UHGV virus genome: UHGV-2078504
Reading direction: 5' to 3' (one strand)
DNA from: a virus
DNA length: 27,255 bases
The notes beneath the pieces are model-generated. The model saw only the letters and a program-made list of their open reading frames with translations. It had not been told where the DNA came from and made no database searches. Below, in pieces: positions 3,391 through 25,536 of the stretch (position 1 is its first letter; the number at the start of each line of letters is the position of its first letter). The translations under genes and the position numbers were made by a program.

Positions 3391-4188
3391 ATGCCCCTGG
3401 CAAAAATACTTACAAAACAAGTTTCTTTATTAACTGTTTTTTCAGCGTTAGCTTATGCGATGGCATATTCTTTTCAGAAAGGTGTTGCATCGTATTATGG
3501 CTATCCAGCCCTTTTTATTAAAATAGATTTAAATACGCTATTGTATTCGGCTGTATGGCTTTTGTTTTTTAGTTTTTTATTTCTCGGTGCCTTATACGCG
3601 ACATTGATGTTTGATTTGAAAGGGAAATATTATGTTCCATTTATTATATTTATAGTGGTTATGCTAATACCTAATTTTTACATAATAGGATTTCATTGGC
3701 CTTTTGGTTATTTCTCCGAAACCTCTGTGATGAGTGTTGGAGATATTTTATTATTTGCTCTGCTTTTGTTGAATTACCACAATGCGGTGTCCGCGTCAAT
3801 CCATAGTAAGAGACACGAACATCATATGGATAGCATTAGAAAGTTTGGGAGGCTTGCAGAGTATAAAGACGTATTTTATTATATCGATTTAAAAATCCTA
3901 AAATCAGCTTTTCCTTTAGGGGTGATGACATTATTGATATTGAGCTATACCTTCGGGAAGGTTACTGCATTTAAAAATAACGAATATTATATGGTAGATG
4001 GTAGTAATACTAAAGTGTTGCTCAATTCATTTGGTAGTGGTTTTGTTGTTGGTGATTGTGAGTCCAATAGCGCAAAATTTGAATTTGTTAATGATTTAAA
4101 AGGGATGAAATTCACAGTTATGTCCTCTAAAAAGGAAATAGCTAAATTAAAAGAGTGTTTCGAAACACGTGTTAAAAATACGGATTAA
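3391..4188 (+). CDS. Hypothetical AT-rich membrane protein (moron; N-terminal multi-TM region plus C-terminal soluble domain)
   Basis: 265-aa ORF with GGAGG Shine-Dalgarno 5-6 nt upstream; several hydrophobic helices (VSLLTVFSALAYAMAY, LLYSAVWLLFFSFLFLGALYATLMF, VPFIIFIVVMLIPNFYIIGF, ILLFALLLLNY); strongly AT-rich compared with flanking genes; opposite strand to the surrounding operon. Confidence 0.65.
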   Translation: MPLAKILTKQVSLLTVFSALAYAMAYSFQKGVASYYGYPALFIKIDLNTLLYSAVWLLFFSFLFLGALYATLMFDLKGKYYVPFIIFIVVMLIPNFYIIGFHWPFGYFSETSVMSVGDILLFALLLLNYHNAVSASIHSKRHEHHMDSIRKFGRLAEYKDVFYYIDLKILKSAFPLGVMTLLILSYTFGKVTAFKNNEYYMVDGSNTKVLLNSFGSGFVVGDCESNSAKFEFVNDLKGMKFTVMSSKKEIAKLKECFETRVKNTD

Positions 4189-4200
4189 AGCATAAGTCTT

Positions 4201-4488
4201 TTATCTTTTATTGCGGCTTAAAATAATTTCCTCCAGATTTTTGCTATCCAGCACCACCACGGTAAAGCCCAGCTCGCGCAGCCGCTCGTGCTCGCGCAAC
4301 TGGTCGGCGCGTGGTGCTTTGCCGGGTGCTTTGCATTCAACGAAAACAAGACGGCCGCCGGGTAGCAGAACAATGCGATCCGGTACCGAGCGGCGACCGG
4401 GAGATACGAACTTAAAGGCCACACCGCCAGCCTTTTTCACTTCAGCGACGAGGTGCTTTTCGATAAGGCTCTCACGTTCATAAGACAT
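4201..4488 (-). CDS. VRR-NUC domain nuclease
   Basis: 95-aa ORF with PD-(D/E)xK-like core (PDRIVLLPGGRLVFVECKAPGK); GC-rich like the core operon; family commonly partners SNF2 helicases in phage replication modules. Confidence 0.7.
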   Translation of the reverse strand: MSYERESLIEKHLVAEVKKAGGVAFKFVSPGRRSVPDRIVLLPGGRLVFVECKAPGKAPRADQLREHERLRELGFTVVVLDSKNLEEIILSRNKR

Positions 4489-4548
4489 AAATTTGCCTTG
4501 TTAACACTTATTGGGTAGTATCAAATAAAACAAGTATAAGGAATTAAT

Positions 4549-5577
4549 ATGTCACGAATCTTATTTCCCTCTTCATGTAATCCTGAAAAGATATTTAATT
4601 TTTGCAATGAAATTGAAAAACATTCAGGTCAACAGCAAATAACAATCGATTTTTCGCATATGGGAAGGATTGAACCATTTACAATGGTTTATGTTGCTAA
4701 GCATATTCGAGACTTCCATCGAAAACAGAAAAAGAACATTGATGGTTTTAAACTTTTTTGTAGCGGGCATGAGAATAAGGATTATGCCGCAAATATGGCA
4801 TTCTTTCGAGCCTTCGGGTTAAAGCATGGCCGTGAACCGGGATGTACAGATGGAAATAATAATTTTGTTCCATTTACAATTCTTCGTGTTCAAACAGTTA
4901 TAGATGAAGCTAACGATAAATATACTGAGGTGCAAGAGATAGTTGAGGAACGATCTGGTAAATTAGCAAAGATTCTTGCTCGCCAAGAAGAAGGCGACCT
5001 CATTGATGCTTTGACATTTTCTATTAGGGAAATTATGCGTAATGTTGTGGAACATAGTGATTCAAAGGTGATTGAATATTGTGCACAGTATTGGCCTTCT
5101 TATGACCGTGTTGAAATAACAATTTCTGATAATGGTATAGGAATGAAAAAATCTCTATCGAAGAACCCTTATATAGAAGCTGATAATGATTCTGAAGCCA
5201 TTCAGTTAGCGTTAATGCCATCTATTTCTAGTAAAAATTTTAAGGGGGCGAGAATCAATACAAGAAATCCTTGGCATAATTCGGGATTTGGCCTTTATAT
5301 GATCAGCCGTATATGTAAACTTGGCGGTAGTTTTCTTATTTGTAGCGGTGACCATGCAATATATCTAGATGAACACGGAAAGAAGCATATAGAGTTAGGT
5401 CATTATCATGAAGGAACTGTCGTTAGAATGGTGTTGAATACTAAAAAACTTGGTTCCTTAAGCTCAATGCTTACGCAGTTTAAGGAGGATGGCTACAAAA
5501 TAGCTGCAGAAATAAAACATACTGGAGTTTATACAGCATCAGCTGCTTCGCAGATGTTATCTAGGGATTTTAAGTGA
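4549..5577 (+). CDS. Hypothetical protein with C-terminal GHKL/histidine-kinase-like ATPase domain (moron)
   Basis: 342-aa AT-rich ORF; C-terminal half carries N-box-like REIMRNVVEHS, G1 box ISDNGIGM and G2 box NSGFGLYMISRI characteristic of HATPase_c (histidine kinase/anti-sigma-factor kinase/GHKL) folds; N-terminal ~110 aa of unknown function. Confidence 0.7.
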   Translation: MSRILFPSSCNPEKIFNFCNEIEKHSGQQQITIDFSHMGRIEPFTMVYVAKHIRDFHRKQKKNIDGFKLFCSGHENKDYAANMAFFRAFGLKHGREPGCTDGNNNFVPFTILRVQTVIDEANDKYTEVQEIVEERSGKLAKILARQEEGDLIDALTFSIREIMRNVVEHSDSKVIEYCAQYWPSYDRVEITISDNGIGMKKSLSKNPYIEADNDSEAIQLALMPSISSKNFKGARINTRNPWHNSGFGLYMISRICKLGGSFLICSGDHAIYLDEHGKKHIELGHYHEGTVVRMVLNTKKLGSLSSMLTQFKEDGYKIAAEIKHTGVYTASAASQMLSRDFK

Positions 5578-7694: not shown

Positions 7695-8324
7695 ATGCAT
7701 ATGATCCAATACTTGATTGACCATACAGAGCATCTGGAGAAAATAGCTGGATATATTTTTTCATGTTTGATTGTTATGGGAGTCTGGATAAGAAAGATCA
7801 TTTTTAATTATAAGTATAAAGAGCCTAAATATGTCAAGAAGTTAATTTTATATTTAATTAAGTATGAACGTTATCTGGATAAGGAGGATAAGAAAGCCAT
7901 AGAAAAAAGAATAAATGATAAAATTATTCGTGATGCGCTGAAATTGCAATCCTCTTATAACCGAAGTGATGTTATTTACATTTGCAATAGATTAGAAAAA
8001 AGACAGTATATAAATCAGTTGATTAAGCTTCAGAATTATATAGAGAAAGATAACGGAGTGTTTTTTATTAATGTTGATTTTTCAGGTTTTTTATTTATTG
8101 TTAGTCGTCTGTTTTCCTTTCTGTGTTTTGTGCTGTTTACCCTTTTTTCTATTATCTGCATTATTTCCATAGGGCAAAATGAAGGCCTTTTAAATTATCT
8201 TGTGTATATGGTTATGATAATAGTTTTAGAGACTGTTGGTTTTTGGATGTATGATACTTTCCCGTCTAAGAAAAAGATCTGTGAACTAAATAAAGAATTG
8301 AGAAAGATTAAGATTCCTGAGTGA
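7695..8324 (+). CDS. Hypothetical AT-rich membrane protein (moron)
   Basis: 209-aa, very AT-rich ORF on the opposite strand to the operon; N-terminal TM helix (IAGYIFSCLIVMGVWI), lysine-rich soluble segment, then two or three C-terminal TM helices (FLFIVSRLFSFLCFVLFTLFSIICIISIG, LVYMVMIIVLETVGFWMY). Start could be 7695 or 7701. Confidence 0.6.
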   Translation: MHMIQYLIDHTEHLEKIAGYIFSCLIVMGVWIRKIIFNYKYKEPKYVKKLILYLIKYERYLDKEDKKAIEKRINDKIIRDALKLQSSYNRSDVIYICNRLEKRQYINQLIKLQNYIEKDNGVFFINVDFSGFLFIVSRLFSFLCFVLFTLFSIICIISIGQNEGLLNYLVYMVMIIVLETVGFWMYDTFPSKKKICELNKELRKIKIPE

Positions 8325-12462: not shown

Positions 12463-13137
12463 TTAGTACATACGTAGCGCGGATTTGGCGATCCCCGCCA
12501 CGTAATGGATTTTTTCAATGTTTTCGCGTGGTACTCTGACTGGTGGATGATCTTCATTTACAGACATTAGATGGAACAGGCCATCGCGTTCGAACAAGAA
12601 GGTTTTAACCATGACCTCACCTTCCCGGGTAACCACAAGTACTTCATCACCAGGAGTGTAGTCGTGGTTGGGTTCGACGATTACGAACTCCCCCTCTTTG
12701 ATTCTAGGCATCATTGAATCACCAACACATTTCAGGGCGTATGCATCTTCATCCTTTGTCGGCCAGTATATGAAACCATCACTGCTACCTACTGAATATT
12801 GGGTGTCGCTCCAAAGTCCTCCAACGCCTAGCTGAGTGTTTCCCAAAACAGGTACTTTATTAAACCTAAGAGAAATATACGTTTTTATACCTGTCGCGTC
12901 CTCTTTCTCCATTTCTTGAAGGCTCCTTTCTGCCAAGTCTATTGGTGACACGTGGAAGTAGTCGGCGATCTGCTTTAACGTTGCGTATTTCGGATCTTTC
13001 ACCTCTCCTGATACCAGCCTGTGTAGCGTTGGTTGGTTCAGCTGTAACCGACGTGCCAGCTCAGTTATCGAGCTTATCTTGGCTTTGTCCATCAGGTACT
13101 TGATGTTTTGAGAAAGGATATCGGTAGTATCAATCAT
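12463..13137 (-). CDS. cI: CI-like prophage repressor (N-terminal HTH, C-terminal S24 LexA-like autopeptidase)
   Basis: 224-aa ORF; N-terminal HTH (ITELARRLQLNQPTLHRLVSG); C-terminal S24 signature with catalytic Ser (CVGDSMMP) and Lys (EVMVKT); divergent from a Cro-like gene. Confidence 0.85.
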   Translation of the reverse strand: MIDTTDILSQNIKYLMDKAKISSITELARRLQLNQPTLHRLVSGEVKDPKYATLKQIADYFHVSPIDLAERSLQEMEKEDATGIKTYISLRFNKVPVLGNTQLGVGGLWSDTQYSVGSSDGFIYWPTKDEDAYALKCVGDSMMPRIKEGEFVIVEPNHDYTPGDEVLVVTREGEVMVKTFLFERDGLFHLMSVNEDHPPVRVPRENIEKIHYVAGIAKSALRMY

Positions 13138-13278: not shown

Positions 13279-13479
13279 ATGTCCGGACTAACACCACAAG
13301 AGATGGTCAAAAGCTTGATTGATTCAGGGTATACCCAAAACCAAATTGCCGAAATTGCAGGCGTGAAGCAGTCTTCTATTAGTCGGCTTCTTACCGGGGT
13401 TCATTCTGACCCTCGCTTTTCTACAGTACGTGCGATAGAAAAACTTTTTCAGGAAGTGACAGCTAGACAAAAGGTGTAA
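13279..13479 (+). CDS. cro: Cro-like HTH transcriptional regulator
   Basis: 66-aa ORF with HTH (YTQNQIAEIAGVKQSSISRLLTG), divergent from the repressor, immediately upstream of the primase. Confidence 0.7.
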   Translation: MSGLTPQEMVKSLIDSGYTQNQIAEIAGVKQSSISRLLTGVHSDPRFSTVRAIEKLFQEVTARQKV

Positions 13480-13482
13480 CCC

Positions 13483-15669
13483 ATGTCCGATAGCAAACCA
13501 TGGGGAGCTACGCCTGATGAGTGGTTTCATTTCGACCTGGTATTGGGGCGGACTGCTCATCTTCTCCCAGTTGTATGTAACCCCAGTGCGACCATATCCC
13601 CTGATAGTAAATTGAAAGCGTTGGGTAAGACGCCGAGTCGCTATAACCGGGACCGCCAGGTCACCGGTATTGCTCAATGGACCGGGCATGTTGTTACTGA
13701 GCATGATTTTGCCCACTGGTCGAATGAACCGGATTATGGCATCTGCGTGCGTACAGGCCATGGCTGGCTGGCGCTGGACTGCGATAGCGAAGATGAAGAC
13801 ATTCAGGCAGATATTCGCAAAACACTTGTGCAACTTCTGGGTGAGTCGCCGCCGCGACGCTGGCGAGCAAACAGTAATAAGTGTCTGTATCTGCTGGCCG
13901 TTGATGGTGATTTCCGTAAGCGTATCCATCGCCTAGCGGGGGATATGGGCATTATCGAGTTGCTGGCGAACGGGCAGCAGTTCGTTGCCTGTGGTACGCA
14001 CAGCAGCGGCGCGCGTATTGAATGGGACGGTGGTTTGCCGGATGAACCTCCGGCTATTACAGGTGAGCAGCTTGAAACGCTGTGGCAGCGCCTGGCTGAA
14101 CAACTCCCTGTGTCGGTAACCACCGAAGCGGGCAACACGAAGATGCGCGACCGTTCAGCATTCACGCCCGGCGCGACGGATGATACAGCTGAATATCTTG
14201 ATGCCAATGGCTGGACGCTGCTGGATGGCGCAAACGGTGAACGATATATCCGCTGTCCGTTTGAAGACGGCCACAGTAGCGGAGGCGATCCAACAAGCAC
14301 AGTTTATTTTCCTGCGGGAACCGCAGGCTTTGAGCAGGGGCATTTTAAATGCCTGCATGCCAGTTGCGCGCATCGTGATGACGGAGATTTCCTGAATGCC
14401 ATCGGGATCCGCAACGACGATTTCGAAGATCTGACCAGCATCGAAGTGGCGGAACCTTTACCGCTGCCTGCTTTCGAGCGTGATAAATGGGGGCGTATCG
14501 AGGCAACCATCAGCAATGCAGCCAAAGCAGTAGTACGCTCTGATTTTGTGGACATCGATATTCGCTTTGACCAGTTCCGCGACGAAATCATGTTTGCCCC
14601 GGCAGGATCCGGACAATGGCGGGCATTCACCGATGCGGATTATGCGCGCCTGCGCATCACGATGGAAAAGCGGGGATTTAAACCTGTTGGCCGTGAACTT
14701 ATTCGCGATGTGGTGTTACTTGCAGCCGATGAACAACCATTCGATTCAGCGATCACCTGGCTGAACGGGCTGGAGTGGGATGGCGTGCCGCGCATCGAAT
14801 GTTTCTACCATACGCACTTCGGTACCGCCGACACGCCTTATACCCGTGCGGTGTCTATGTACATGTGGACCGCGTTGGCGGGGCGAGTACTGGAGCCAGG
14901 CATCAAAGCGGATATGGTGCCGATCCTCGTTGGTCCGCAGGGCTGCGGTAAGTCTTCCGGAGTGGAGGCACTGAGCCCTGATCCTGCGTTTTTTACTGAA
15001 ATCTCTTTTGCCGAAAAAGACGATGATCTCGCTCGAAAAATGCGTGGTCGGCTGGTGGCAGAGATTGGTGAACTGCGCGGACTTAATACCAAAGAGCTGG
15101 AGTCAATCAAAGCGTTTGTGACGCGTACTCACGAAAACTGGATCCCGAAATACCGGGAGTTCGCCACCCAGTTTCCTCGTCGCCTGGTGTTCGTTGGTAC
15201 CACTAATGAGGACGAATTCCTTGCGGACAAGACTGGTAACCGTCGCTGGCTCCCCGTGGAAGTGTCGAAAGTCGACGTGAAAGCGATAAAAAGAGATCTT
15301 CTTTTACTTTGGGCTGAGGCTCGTGAGGTGTTTCAGCGTCTGGGGGGTATCCAGTTCCGTGAGGCTGAACAACTGGCAGCGAGTGTCCATGAACAGTACA
15401 CCATCAAGGATGCTTGGCTTGAAACGGTAGAGAAATGGCTCGACACGCCCGACCTGATGACTAATGAACTTCCGCGAAATTGCGAATTTTTACGCGCAAG
15501 TGATGTTTTGCGTGATGCGATTGGGCTAAATCCTGACCGCATCGGAAAACGCGAAGAAATGCGAATTAGTAATGTTTTGCAAAATTGCGGGTATAAGCGT
15601 GCCCAAAGGCGAATTGGGGGGAAAAAATGCAAGGTTTGGGAACCGCTGGAACCACGCGGAACCACCTAG
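13483..15669 (+). CDS. Replication primase: N-terminal PrimPol-like domain fused to C-terminal P-loop (VirE/D5-like) ATPase
   Basis: 728-aa ORF; N-terminal acidic catalytic region (WLALDCDSEDED), central cysteine/histidine cluster (CPFEDGHSSG...HFKCLHASCAH), C-terminal Walker A GPQGCGKSS; followed by iterons. Confidence 0.75.
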   Translation: MSDSKPWGATPDEWFHFDLVLGRTAHLLPVVCNPSATISPDSKLKALGKTPSRYNRDRQVTGIAQWTGHVVTEHDFAHWSNEPDYGICVRTGHGWLALDCDSEDEDIQADIRKTLVQLLGESPPRRWRANSNKCLYLLAVDGDFRKRIHRLAGDMGIIELLANGQQFVACGTHSSGARIEWDGGLPDEPPAITGEQLETLWQRLAEQLPVSVTTEAGNTKMRDRSAFTPGATDDTAEYLDANGWTLLDGANGERYIRCPFEDGHSSGGDPTSTVYFPAGTAGFEQGHFKCLHASCAHRDDGDFLNAIGIRNDDFEDLTSIEVAEPLPLPAFERDKWGRIEATISNAAKAVVRSDFVDIDIRFDQFRDEIMFAPAGSGQWRAFTDADYARLRITMEKRGFKPVGRELIRDVVLLAADEQPFDSAITWLNGLEWDGVPRIECFYHTHFGTADTPYTRAVSMYMWTALAGRVLEPGIKADMVPILVGPQGCGKSSGVEALSPDPAFFTEISFAEKDDDLARKMRGRLVAEIGELRGLNTKELESIKAFVTRTHENWIPKYREFATQFPRRLVFVGTTNEDEFLADKTGNRRWLPVEVSKVDVKAIKRDLLLLWAEAREVFQRLGGIQFREAEQLAASVHEQYTIKDAWLETVEKWLDTPDLMTNELPRNCEFLRASDVLRDAIGLNPDRIGKREEMRISNVLQNCGYKRAQRRIGGKKCKVWEPLEPRGTT

Positions 15670-15828
15670 AAGAGAAGGTGGTTCCACCTTGCAGACCTTG
15701 TGGCAAGCGGGGCGGAACTACTGGAACCACTGGAACCGCCTTTCTACTAGAAACCCCATATATATATATAAGTCGATTGAGGGAAAGGTTAGGAAAAGGT
15801 GGTTCCAGGTGGGGGCAGGTGGTTCCAC
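15639..15828. repeat. Iteron cluster with central (AT)n tract: putative phage origin of replication
   Basis: At least nine copies of the core GGAACC(A/G)C or its complement GGTGGTTCC in both orientations (e.g. 15639-15644, 15648-15655, 15658-15666, 15677-15688, 15723-15730, 15732-15740, 15798-15807, 15817-15828) flanking ATATATATATATA at 15758-15771; begins inside the last codons of the primase gene. Confidence 0.55.
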
Positions 15829-15957
15829 TCCGAATTAGCAACTTTTTGCATGTTGATACATGCAATATGCGGATCGGAACTGCGTTATCCACACCCACGG
15901 ATAAACAGACGTAGTTCTCAGAAAAATTTTTCGTAGCAAAACGTAGAGGTCAGAGCT

Positions 15958-16392
15958 ATGCGTAATATTCAACAGGTTTTAGAGCGCTGGGGTGGATGGG
16001 CTGCCGATAGCAACACCACAGTGAGCTGGGCTCCAATAGCGGCGGGATTTAAAGGGCTGGTAGTCAGCAGCTCGCCTGGCAGGCTGAGTTGCTGTGACGA
16101 CGATGGCCTGATTATCGATGCTTGCGTCTGTCGGCTGCAGCAGGTCCGTAAGCCTGAGGAACTGGACGTCATTATGCTGTACTACGTCTACGGGTTAAGC
16201 AAACGTGAGATAGGGCGGCGGCGTCGCTGTTCTGAAGGATTTATCCGCCAGCAGTTGCAGGTAGCAGAGGGATTCATTGAGGGGTGTCTCTGCATGCTGG
16301 GTGTGAGCCTTCAGATGGATCCTGAGGTCGAAATTCAAAGGGATGAAAAAAGTATTAGTGCGCTACGCAAAAACTGCGCTACGCTGGTATGA
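15958..16392 (+). CDS. Q: Late-gene antitermination protein Q
   Basis: 144-aa ORF beginning MRNIQQVLERWGGWAA with cysteine cluster (CCDDDGLIIDACVC), resembling lambdoid Q-family antiterminators as recalled; located directly upstream of the lysis cassette. Confidence 0.7.
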   Translation: MRNIQQVLERWGGWAADSNTTVSWAPIAAGFKGLVVSSSPGRLSCCDDDGLIIDACVCRLQQVRKPEELDVIMLYYVYGLSKREIGRRRRCSEGFIRQQLQVAEGFIEGCLCMLGVSLQMDPEVEIQRDEKSISALRKNCATLV

Positions 16393-16670
16393 GTTGAATT
16401 TCTGACCTCAACGAAGAGCTCCAAATCATTGGGGCTTTTTTAATGCTCTATTCTCAGTAAAAGTTAATAAAACAGGGTTTTCGTCGCGAAAAAACGCTAT
16501 GCAGTTTTTGCCCTTTTTTATGCACCTTTTATTCACTCGAATTTCGTCATTCTGGACCACTTAAGTTGATTAAATAGGCCTTTCATCGCAAATCTATTGC
16601 GAGCGGTGATCGTGTGGTTCCTATAACGTACATTATGTTAAATAACTTCCTTTTTTAACAAATTTAACAA
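16393..16670 (+). promoter_or_regulatory. Expected Q-dependent late promoter/qut region (position not resolved)
   Basis: By analogy with lambda PR'/qut lying just downstream of Q; long AT-rich non-coding stretch between Q and the holin. No promoter elements confidently identified. Confidence 0.3.
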
Positions 16671-16694
16671 GGTTCGCTATGGCGAACTTTTTTT
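16671..16694 (+). terminator. Putative intrinsic terminator (tR'-like) in late leader
   Basis: GGTTCGC-tat-GGCGAAC hairpin followed by TTTTTTT. Confidence 0.4.
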
Positions 16695-16795
16695 GTATTC
16701 AGGGCCCACCGAAGGACGGCTCATAACCCAATCCTACGGGCGTATACGCAGGGCCCGCCTTTCAACAACACCCCGTAATGGCGGAGGTGGGAAGT

Positions 16796-25521: not shown

Positions 25522-25536
25522 NNNNNNNNNNNNNNN
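25522..25536. other. Assembly gap (15 N)
   Basis: Run of 15 n characters; true length unknown. Confidence 0.95.

Follow-up and report, generated by a model that had tools for sequence, protein, structure and literature searches.

The question raised by the stretch of DNA studied here, the 27,255-nucleotide UHGV virus genome UHGV-2078504 (called the window below), is what function is served by an array of short repeats that begins in the last codons of a primase gene and continues past an alternating AT tract. An earlier note on this DNA had taken the array for a replication origin bound by the initiator encoded right beside it. The results of this analysis indicate that the array is very probably the vegetative replication origin of a temperate Escherichia coli prophage of ~42 kb, and that it is of the type in which rep is followed by ori, as in the Staphylococcus aureus pathogenicity islands (SaPIs) and other phage-inducible chromosomal islands (PICIs). 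The evidence obtained in this analysis consists of the repeats, their statistics, protein homology, a conserved architecture and co-variation. At the level of sequence, the reading in the earlier note is supported by homology of the protein to SaPI Rep, by the conserved layout, by co-variation of the repeat word with the wing of the protein and by the presence of a single cluster.

Between positions 15639 and 15826, motif search and direct reading found eight exact copies of GGAACC(A/G)C, five on the plus strand (starting at 15639, 15648, 15658, 15723 and 15732) and three on the minus strand (15678-15685, 15799-15806 and 15819-15826). The occurrence of both orientations within 190 bp was therefore described correctly in the earlier note, and the tandem strings quoted there were found at 15723-15740 and 15798-15826. 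However, its count of at least nine copies does not hold for exact copies; the number becomes ten if two degenerate copies are included, GGAACTAC at 15714 (plus) and GCCCCCACCT at 15807-15816 (minus). In a 10-nt register the iteron consensus is GGAACCACCT, of which there are four perfect copies (15658+, 15676-, 15797- and 15817-), and tandem iterons are spaced 9-10 bp apart. GGAACCRC was observed 10 times in the whole window compared to 1.67 +/- 1.33 expected from 100 dinucleotide-preserving shuffles of the window, none of which reached 10 copies, and the two copies outside the array (14317 and 16614) represent the chance level. The repeats could be thought to cluster by chance or merely to reflect a repetitive C-terminal peptide, given that three copies lie within codons (EPLEPRGTT). 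However, the shuffles do not reproduce the count, seven of the ten copies are non-coding (three are coding), and the layout recurs with other words in 91 of 114 relatives described below, so that this reading is refuted and its probability is close to nil.

The copies are organized in three clusters and one isolated inverted copy (Table 1). Clusters B and C, with three copies each, face each other in opposite orientation on either side of the AT tract, which agrees with the earlier description of repeats surrounding this tract. The tract is ATATATATATATA or (AT)6A at 15758-15770, and no 14-mer duplex of the window is less stable than the one found here (0 of 27,242 positions). Cluster A occupies the final 10 codons of the open reading frame (ORF) at 13483-15669, whose product ends in ...KVWEPLEPRGTT*, and its third copy runs into the TAG stop (15667-15669); the first copies are thus within the last primase codons, as had been claimed. 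The iteron at 15658 and the inverted copy at 15676 are the two arms of a 10-bp inverted repeat across the stop codon, separated by a loop of 8 nt. As RNA, 15658-15685 would fold into a 10-bp hairpin of -18 kcal/mol (z -2.0) without a U tract. The '+ + -' arrangement of cluster A and the inverted copy is also kept in relatives, and these elements could be an auxiliary binding site or a 3' structure of the transcript.

That hairpin, located at the stop codon, raises a different explanation, in which the array mainly exerts transcriptional control between the early operon (cro, primase) and the antiterminator gene Q, either as an operator or roadblock to which the C-terminal domain of the primase would bind or as an RNA hairpin at the 3' end of the gene, and so times the late genes. 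The array does lie in the 288-bp gap just upstream of Q, and such a role could coexist with that of an origin. However, the promoter and terminator scan predicted neither in the array, the hairpin has a modest z and lacks a U tract, the arrays of phages YeP4, Jess A and ACF1 have no annotated Q downstream, and the symmetric placement of iterons around an AT tract would be left unexplained. Transcriptional control as the main function is therefore considered very unlikely. Rfam gave no match in the window, and GC skew showed no switch at the array.

The same layout was found after homologous genes in Yersinia YeP4 (73% identity to the window protein), Hamiltonella APSE-1 (72% over the helicase half), Caulobacter Jess A (46% identity) and Acidovorax ACF1 (55% over the helicase half), each with a different repeat word: AGACAACCT, GTAACRACC, GTAACCAC and GTTCCYAC, respectively. 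A further 133 loci were taken from viral and genome collections, and examination of 420 nt around the stop codon yielded 114 distinct regions. At least five copies of one 7-mer were present in 97 of the 114 regions, which range from Enterobacterales to Caulobacter, compared to 4 of 1312 control windows taken at these loci. In 91 of the 114 regions mostly plus-strand copies lie to the left and mostly minus-strand copies to the right of the locally least stable 14-mer, and in 86 that 14-mer contains TATATA. Where the protein is at least 85% identical to that of the window, the layout was found in 65 of 65 regions. The exact-7-mer method under-calls distant relatives: inspection by eye reveals the layout in several of the 23 regions that it did not score, APSE-1 and ACF1 among them. 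In the genomes checked there is one cluster per genome: the O103:H2 prophage has a single iteron cluster in its whole length, 7 of 8 copies in YeP4 are inside the cluster, and in APSE-1 the figure is 10 of 10.

In E. coli and APSE-1 the next gene downstream is Q, whereas YeP4 and ACF1 have a hypothetical gene there and Jess A has a hypothetical gene with the small terminase gene after it. Since the downstream neighbour varies while the array stays, the array belongs with the primase gene. The position of the Jess A terminase gene, ~650 bp downstream, would suit a packaging site (cos or pac, with repeats bound by the terminase small subunit), and the array resembles cosB of phage lambda, which has repeated protein-binding sites near an AT-rich segment. 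In the window, however, the terminase genes are 2.5-3.3 kb downstream of the array, past Q and the lysis genes, and in APSE-1 they are 5 kb away, so that a packaging site was rejected on synteny. The repeat word co-varies with the C-terminus of the primase, and a packaging function is highly improbable.

Three ORFs cross the array (Table 1). They have no PHROG family, and RefSeq annotates no coding sequence (CDS) between the VapE gene and Q. Of 15 representatives only 5, one of them the window, have an ORF of at least 60 aa across the core of the array, and the strand differs among these. This supports the view in the earlier note that the ORFs are probably artefacts. A CDS annotated in APSE-1, 'P4' (3445-3666), covers the spacer and right-hand iterons of the APSE-1 array and is probably not a gene.

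The product of the gene that ends in cluster A was called a primase in the earlier note. A primase domain is indeed present, but the label is too narrow for a protein that combines a PrimPol domain (residues 64-188, Pfam PF09250), a VapE/superfamily 3 (SF3) helicase domain (residues 427-639, PF05272) and a predicted DNA-binding domain. Pfam searches of this gene, which adjoins cro, gave PrimPol, VapE and DUF5906 (PF19263) domains only, and the 728-aa protein was assigned to DNA helicase and primase families of PHROG. Residues 393-657 match SaPI1 Rep in structure 7PDS (7pds_A; phmmer against PDB, E 7.4e-34), the cryo-EM structure of this protein bound to DNA (PMC9371898). The last ~100 residues had no Pfam family and no PDB sequence match, and a profile of 31 C-terminal domains run against PDB sequences gave only noise. 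When the C-terminal 129 aa were used as homology query only 17 fragments were recovered, so the full-length query was needed. An AlphaFold model of residues 625-728 (37-row alignment, mean predicted local distance difference test score 74.5) has three helices followed by a beta hairpin, and the C-terminal domain (~residues 640-721) is predicted to be a winged helix and the putative reader of the iterons. The linker between the PrimPol and helicase domains (window positions 14230-14380, residues ~250-300) carries a Cys/His motif, CPFEDGHS...HFKCLHASCAH, which is kept in full-length relatives and resembles a zinc-binding element.

The published SaPI system offers the closest comparison. In SaPIs, hexamers of Rep contact the iterons by means of a C-terminal winged-helix domain, and the experimentally defined origin lies directly downstream of rep, with 6-12 iterons, two or more of them to either side of an AT-rich centre and the two groups in opposed directions (PMC9371898). 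Rep does not need ATP for binding or melting and has no known loader, hence the term 'self-loading helicase' (PMC9371898). The E. coli PICI EcCICFT073 has the same layout, and its pri-rep-ori drives plasmid replication (PMC6092414); the same paper claims that this organisation of the origin is exclusive to PICIs. The window shares with these elements (SaPI1, SaPI5, SaPIbov1, EcCICFT073) a homologous SF3 helicase domain, a primase part fused to the helicase as in PriRep of SaPI5 (PriRep5), a C-terminal winged helix (predicted here), an origin immediately 3' of the gene, and 6-12 short iterons that face each other in two sets of at least two across an AT-rich centre. It differs in that the host element is a complete phage with its own polymerase, single-stranded DNA (ssDNA)-binding protein, lysis, head and tail genes; in iterons of ~10 bp at 9-10-bp spacing, whereas those of SaPIs are penta- or hexanucleotides; in an extra iteron cluster that overlaps the last codons and is followed by one inverted copy; and in a C-terminal domain without detectable sequence similarity to solved structures. 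PICIs lack most structural and lysis genes and depend on a helper phage; that the element is itself such a satellite island was rejected on the presence of holin, lysozyme, terminase, portal, head and tail genes and a size of ~42 kb. No account of such an origin in these phages emerged from the literature search, though with subscription journals partly outside the search a prior mention is possible.

Because the element matches every sequence-level feature of the SaPI origin and encodes a homologous helicase, the same mechanism is proposed for it; iteron binding, melting, self-loading and initiation are inferred, as is a division of labour between helix and wing. The PrimPol-SF3 helicase-winged-helix protein, which like SaPI Rep is presumably hexameric, would bind the 10-bp iterons (GGAACCACCT) via its C-terminal winged-helix domains. 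The iterons lie at one-helical-turn spacing and are opposed across a 55-bp spacer, and binding would melt the (AT)6A tract. The initiator would then load itself as the replicative helicase, with the PrimPol domain priming, and elongation would be carried out by the phage family-A polymerase and the ssDNA-binding protein, both encoded upstream.

Table 1. Features of the iteron array and of the gene it adjoins (window coordinates)
Feature	Position	Strand	Details
Initiator gene, 728 aa	13483-15669	+	PrimPol + VapE/SF3 helicase + C-terminal domain
Predicted winged-helix codons	15460-15645	+	Recognition helix residues 689-701 = 15547-15585; wing hairpin residues 704-721 = 15592-15645
Iteron cluster A, 3 direct copies	15639-15667	+	GGAACCGCTG 15639, GGAACCACGC 15648, GGAACCACCT 15658; spacing 9 and 10 bp
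Inverted iteron, perfect copy	15676-15685	-	8 nt past cluster A
Iteron cluster B, 3 direct copies, left of AT tract	15714-15741	+	GGAACTACTG 15714 (degenerate), GGAACCACTG 15723, GGAACCGCCT 15732; 9-bp spacing
Spacer, presumed unwinding element	15742-15796		Contains (AT)6A at 15758-15770
Iteron cluster C, 3 inverted copies, right of AT tract	15797-15826	-	15797 perfect, 15807 degenerate (GCCCCCACCT), 15817 perfect; 10-bp spacing
Spurious ORFs across the array	15566-15914 (total span)		15566-15898 (-), 15572-15838 (+), 15627-15914 (+)

Other known systems fit less well. The alpha protein of the satellite phage P4 has primase, helicase and a C-terminal iteron-binding domain in one polypeptide. 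P4 also has 8-bp type 1 repeats in both orientations, with the crr cluster directly 3' of the alpha gene; however, it needs two clusters in cis (ori and crr), ~4.7 kb apart, whereas one cluster is present here. Homology to P4 alpha was rejected (best BLASTP E 0.7). The P4 arrangement nevertheless provides the model for an alternative in which the array does bind the initiator but is an accessory cis site, such as a crr-like enhancer or a site of copy control or handcuffing, and synthesis starts elsewhere: in P4 the iteron cluster just 3' of alpha is crr and the annotated ori is ~4.7 kb off. Cluster A and its inverted copy (15639-15685) likewise have no obvious counterpart in the published SaPI origin. 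However, there is no second iteron cluster in the O103:H2 prophage, YeP4 or APSE-1, the least stable DNA of the window lies between the opposed iteron sets, and the initiator is homologous to SaPI Rep and not to P4 alpha. An accessory site is therefore unlikely, and the array remains best explained as the origin itself.

Lambda-type origins resemble the array in their position, within or next to the initiator gene in a lambdoid early operon near cro, and in combining iterons with an AT-rich region. The initiator here is unrelated to that of lambda and is itself helicase and primase, and 3 of 10 iterons are coding compared to iterons located inside gene O. No O or P homologue and no DnaB loader was seen among the window ORFs scanned, and a lambda-type O/P origin was rejected for lack of an O/P pair. 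An iteron-plasmid origin (Rep plus DnaA) was rejected as well, as a DnaA box is present in only 16 of the 114 regions and is not conserved. In the archaeal plasmid pRN1, sequence downstream of orf904 belongs to the minimal replicon (PMC4234260), but ORF904 comes from a different domain of life.

A further link between array and protein comes from co-variation, which was examined in full-length relatives at least 70% identical and comprised ten iteron classes. All classes share the register NNNN-C-(C/A)-ACCT. The 3' half, C(C/A)ACCT, is common to all of them, as is the recognition helix, while the 5' tetranucleotide varies (GGAA, GTAA, GTAT, GTTA, GTAC, GTCC, TAGA, GTAG). The correspondence between these ten classes and the wing strand GKxxxx[W/F/Y] at residues 713-719 is nearly one to one. 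Wings KCKVW and KSKVW occur with iteron GGAACCAC, VQRVW and VLKVW with GTAACCAC, LMKVW with GTTACCAC, MTRIF and VTRIF with GTACCAAC, KMRIF with GTCCCAAC, QQRVF with AGACAACC, QIRVW with AGACCACC and MTKAW with GTAGCCAC. VLKVW is the sole wing strand with two iterons, GTAACCAC and GTATCCAC, which are one base apart. In 10 of 10 classes a wing with terminal W goes with C at iteron position 6, and a wing with terminal F or Y goes with A; APSE-1 (W with A) is an exception.

In pairs of proteins whose iterons differ while their bodies are at least 90% identical (mean 94%), identity is 94% in the helix (residues 689-703) and 55% in the wing (residues 704-719). When pairs with the same iteron but bodies less than 80% identical (mean 74%) were compared, the helix was 86% and the wing 78% identical. 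The repeat word thus tracks the C-terminal wing and not the remaining protein. Three loci (L017, L018 and L075) encode proteins 98% identical to that of the window up to ...RRIGGK, followed by MTRIFEAV... and GTACCAAC iterons; judged by sequence, a module has been exchanged here, and the breakpoint falls within the wing. A reservation is that the wing codons abut the first iteron, so that linkage contributes to the association of wing and iteron. Linkage alone is argued against by the recurrence of wing-iteron pairs on backgrounds only 72-78% identical, for example KCKVW with GGAACCACC in Photorhabdus (L135) or QQRVF with AGACAACC in Yersinia and Providencia.

The constant half of the iteron goes with the conserved helix and the variable 5' bases go with the wing, which suggests that the helix would read the constant half and the wing the variable half. 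Because the first iterons are encoded directly after the wing codons, a single crossover inside the wing would swap both the reader and its sites. The case is evenly balanced that the wing strand and iterons form one swappable specificity cassette of this kind, which would provide at least ten specificities among initiators otherwise more than 90% identical, may avoid cross-initiation or replicon interference between co-resident or superinfecting relatives, and is maybe a readable code. Lambdoid phages, too, exchange initiator specificity and iterons together. If the wing reads the variable half, changing KCKVW to MTRIF is predicted to shift binding from GGAACCACCT to GTACCAACCT.

The genomic context is that of a prophage of E. 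coli. A queried segment of 601 bp (15400-16000) is 100% identical to KOr019 and 99.8% identical to O103:H2 12009, and related sequence is present in 140 of 5426 complete E. coli genomes, including enterohaemorrhagic E. coli O103:H2. The gene order begins with integrase, an SNF2-type helicase, a family-A DNA polymerase, an Enc34-type ssDNA-binding protein and a DUF2800 nuclease. A cI-like S24 repressor (12463-13137, minus), a Cro-like helix-turn-helix protein (13279-13479) and the 728-aa gene follow, and then the 288-bp gap, in which the array lies for the most part, antiterminator Q (15958-16392) and the genes for holin, lysozyme, terminase, portal, head and tail. At ~42 kb, the element represents a complete temperate phage.

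A perfect DnaA box, TTATCCACA, is located at 15885-15893, 60 bp to the right of the array and between it and Q. Only relatives 98-100% identical to the window have it (16 of 114 regions, the window counted), and it also occurs with a different iteron class, which suggests that the box travels with the Q-proximal segment and not with the origin. It was rejected as part of the origin because it is not family-wide. In the 385-bp gap between Q (ending at 16392) and holin (16778) there is a hairpin with a T run that resembles an intrinsic terminator (16669-16699); this gap is the expected site of the late promoter, the Q utilisation site and a tR'-type terminator. Within the replication module, a low-GC island at 3391-5577 (0.33-0.36 compared to ~0.5) contains two plus-strand ORFs opposite to their neighbours, one without a family (3391-4188) and one with HATPase_c and a weak DrmA-like PADLOC match (4549-5577, E 3e-8). 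O103:H2 12009 has a hypothetical gene and a DNA cytosine methyltransferase at this position instead, and the island may be a moron or defence cargo. Another low-GC (0.34-0.38) plus-strand ORF (7695-8324, 209 aa) lies between the polymerase and ssDNA-binding protein genes and has no Pfam or PADLOC family. In the structural gene region, 25522-25536 consists of 15 N (masked or unknown bases).

The array is very probably a further Rep-ori unit of the SaPI/PICI type, found here in a complete temperate phage, the layout itself being already known from staphylococcal and E. coli satellite islands. The sequence comparisons show that true phages, from Enterobacterales to Caulobacter, also have the organisation described as exclusive to PICIs in PMC6092414, which contradicts that statement, and that it is widespread in Proteobacteria. 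This provides a testable origin for a widespread group of enterobacterial prophages and for the APSE phages of aphid symbionts, whose genome records have no origin annotated here and for which a comparative paper placed one by a generic skew tool. The pairs of wing and iteron represent a natural specificity-swap series for the study of how a winged-helix initiator reads DNA, and the sharing of this origin between phages and PICIs bears on where satellite replicons came from.

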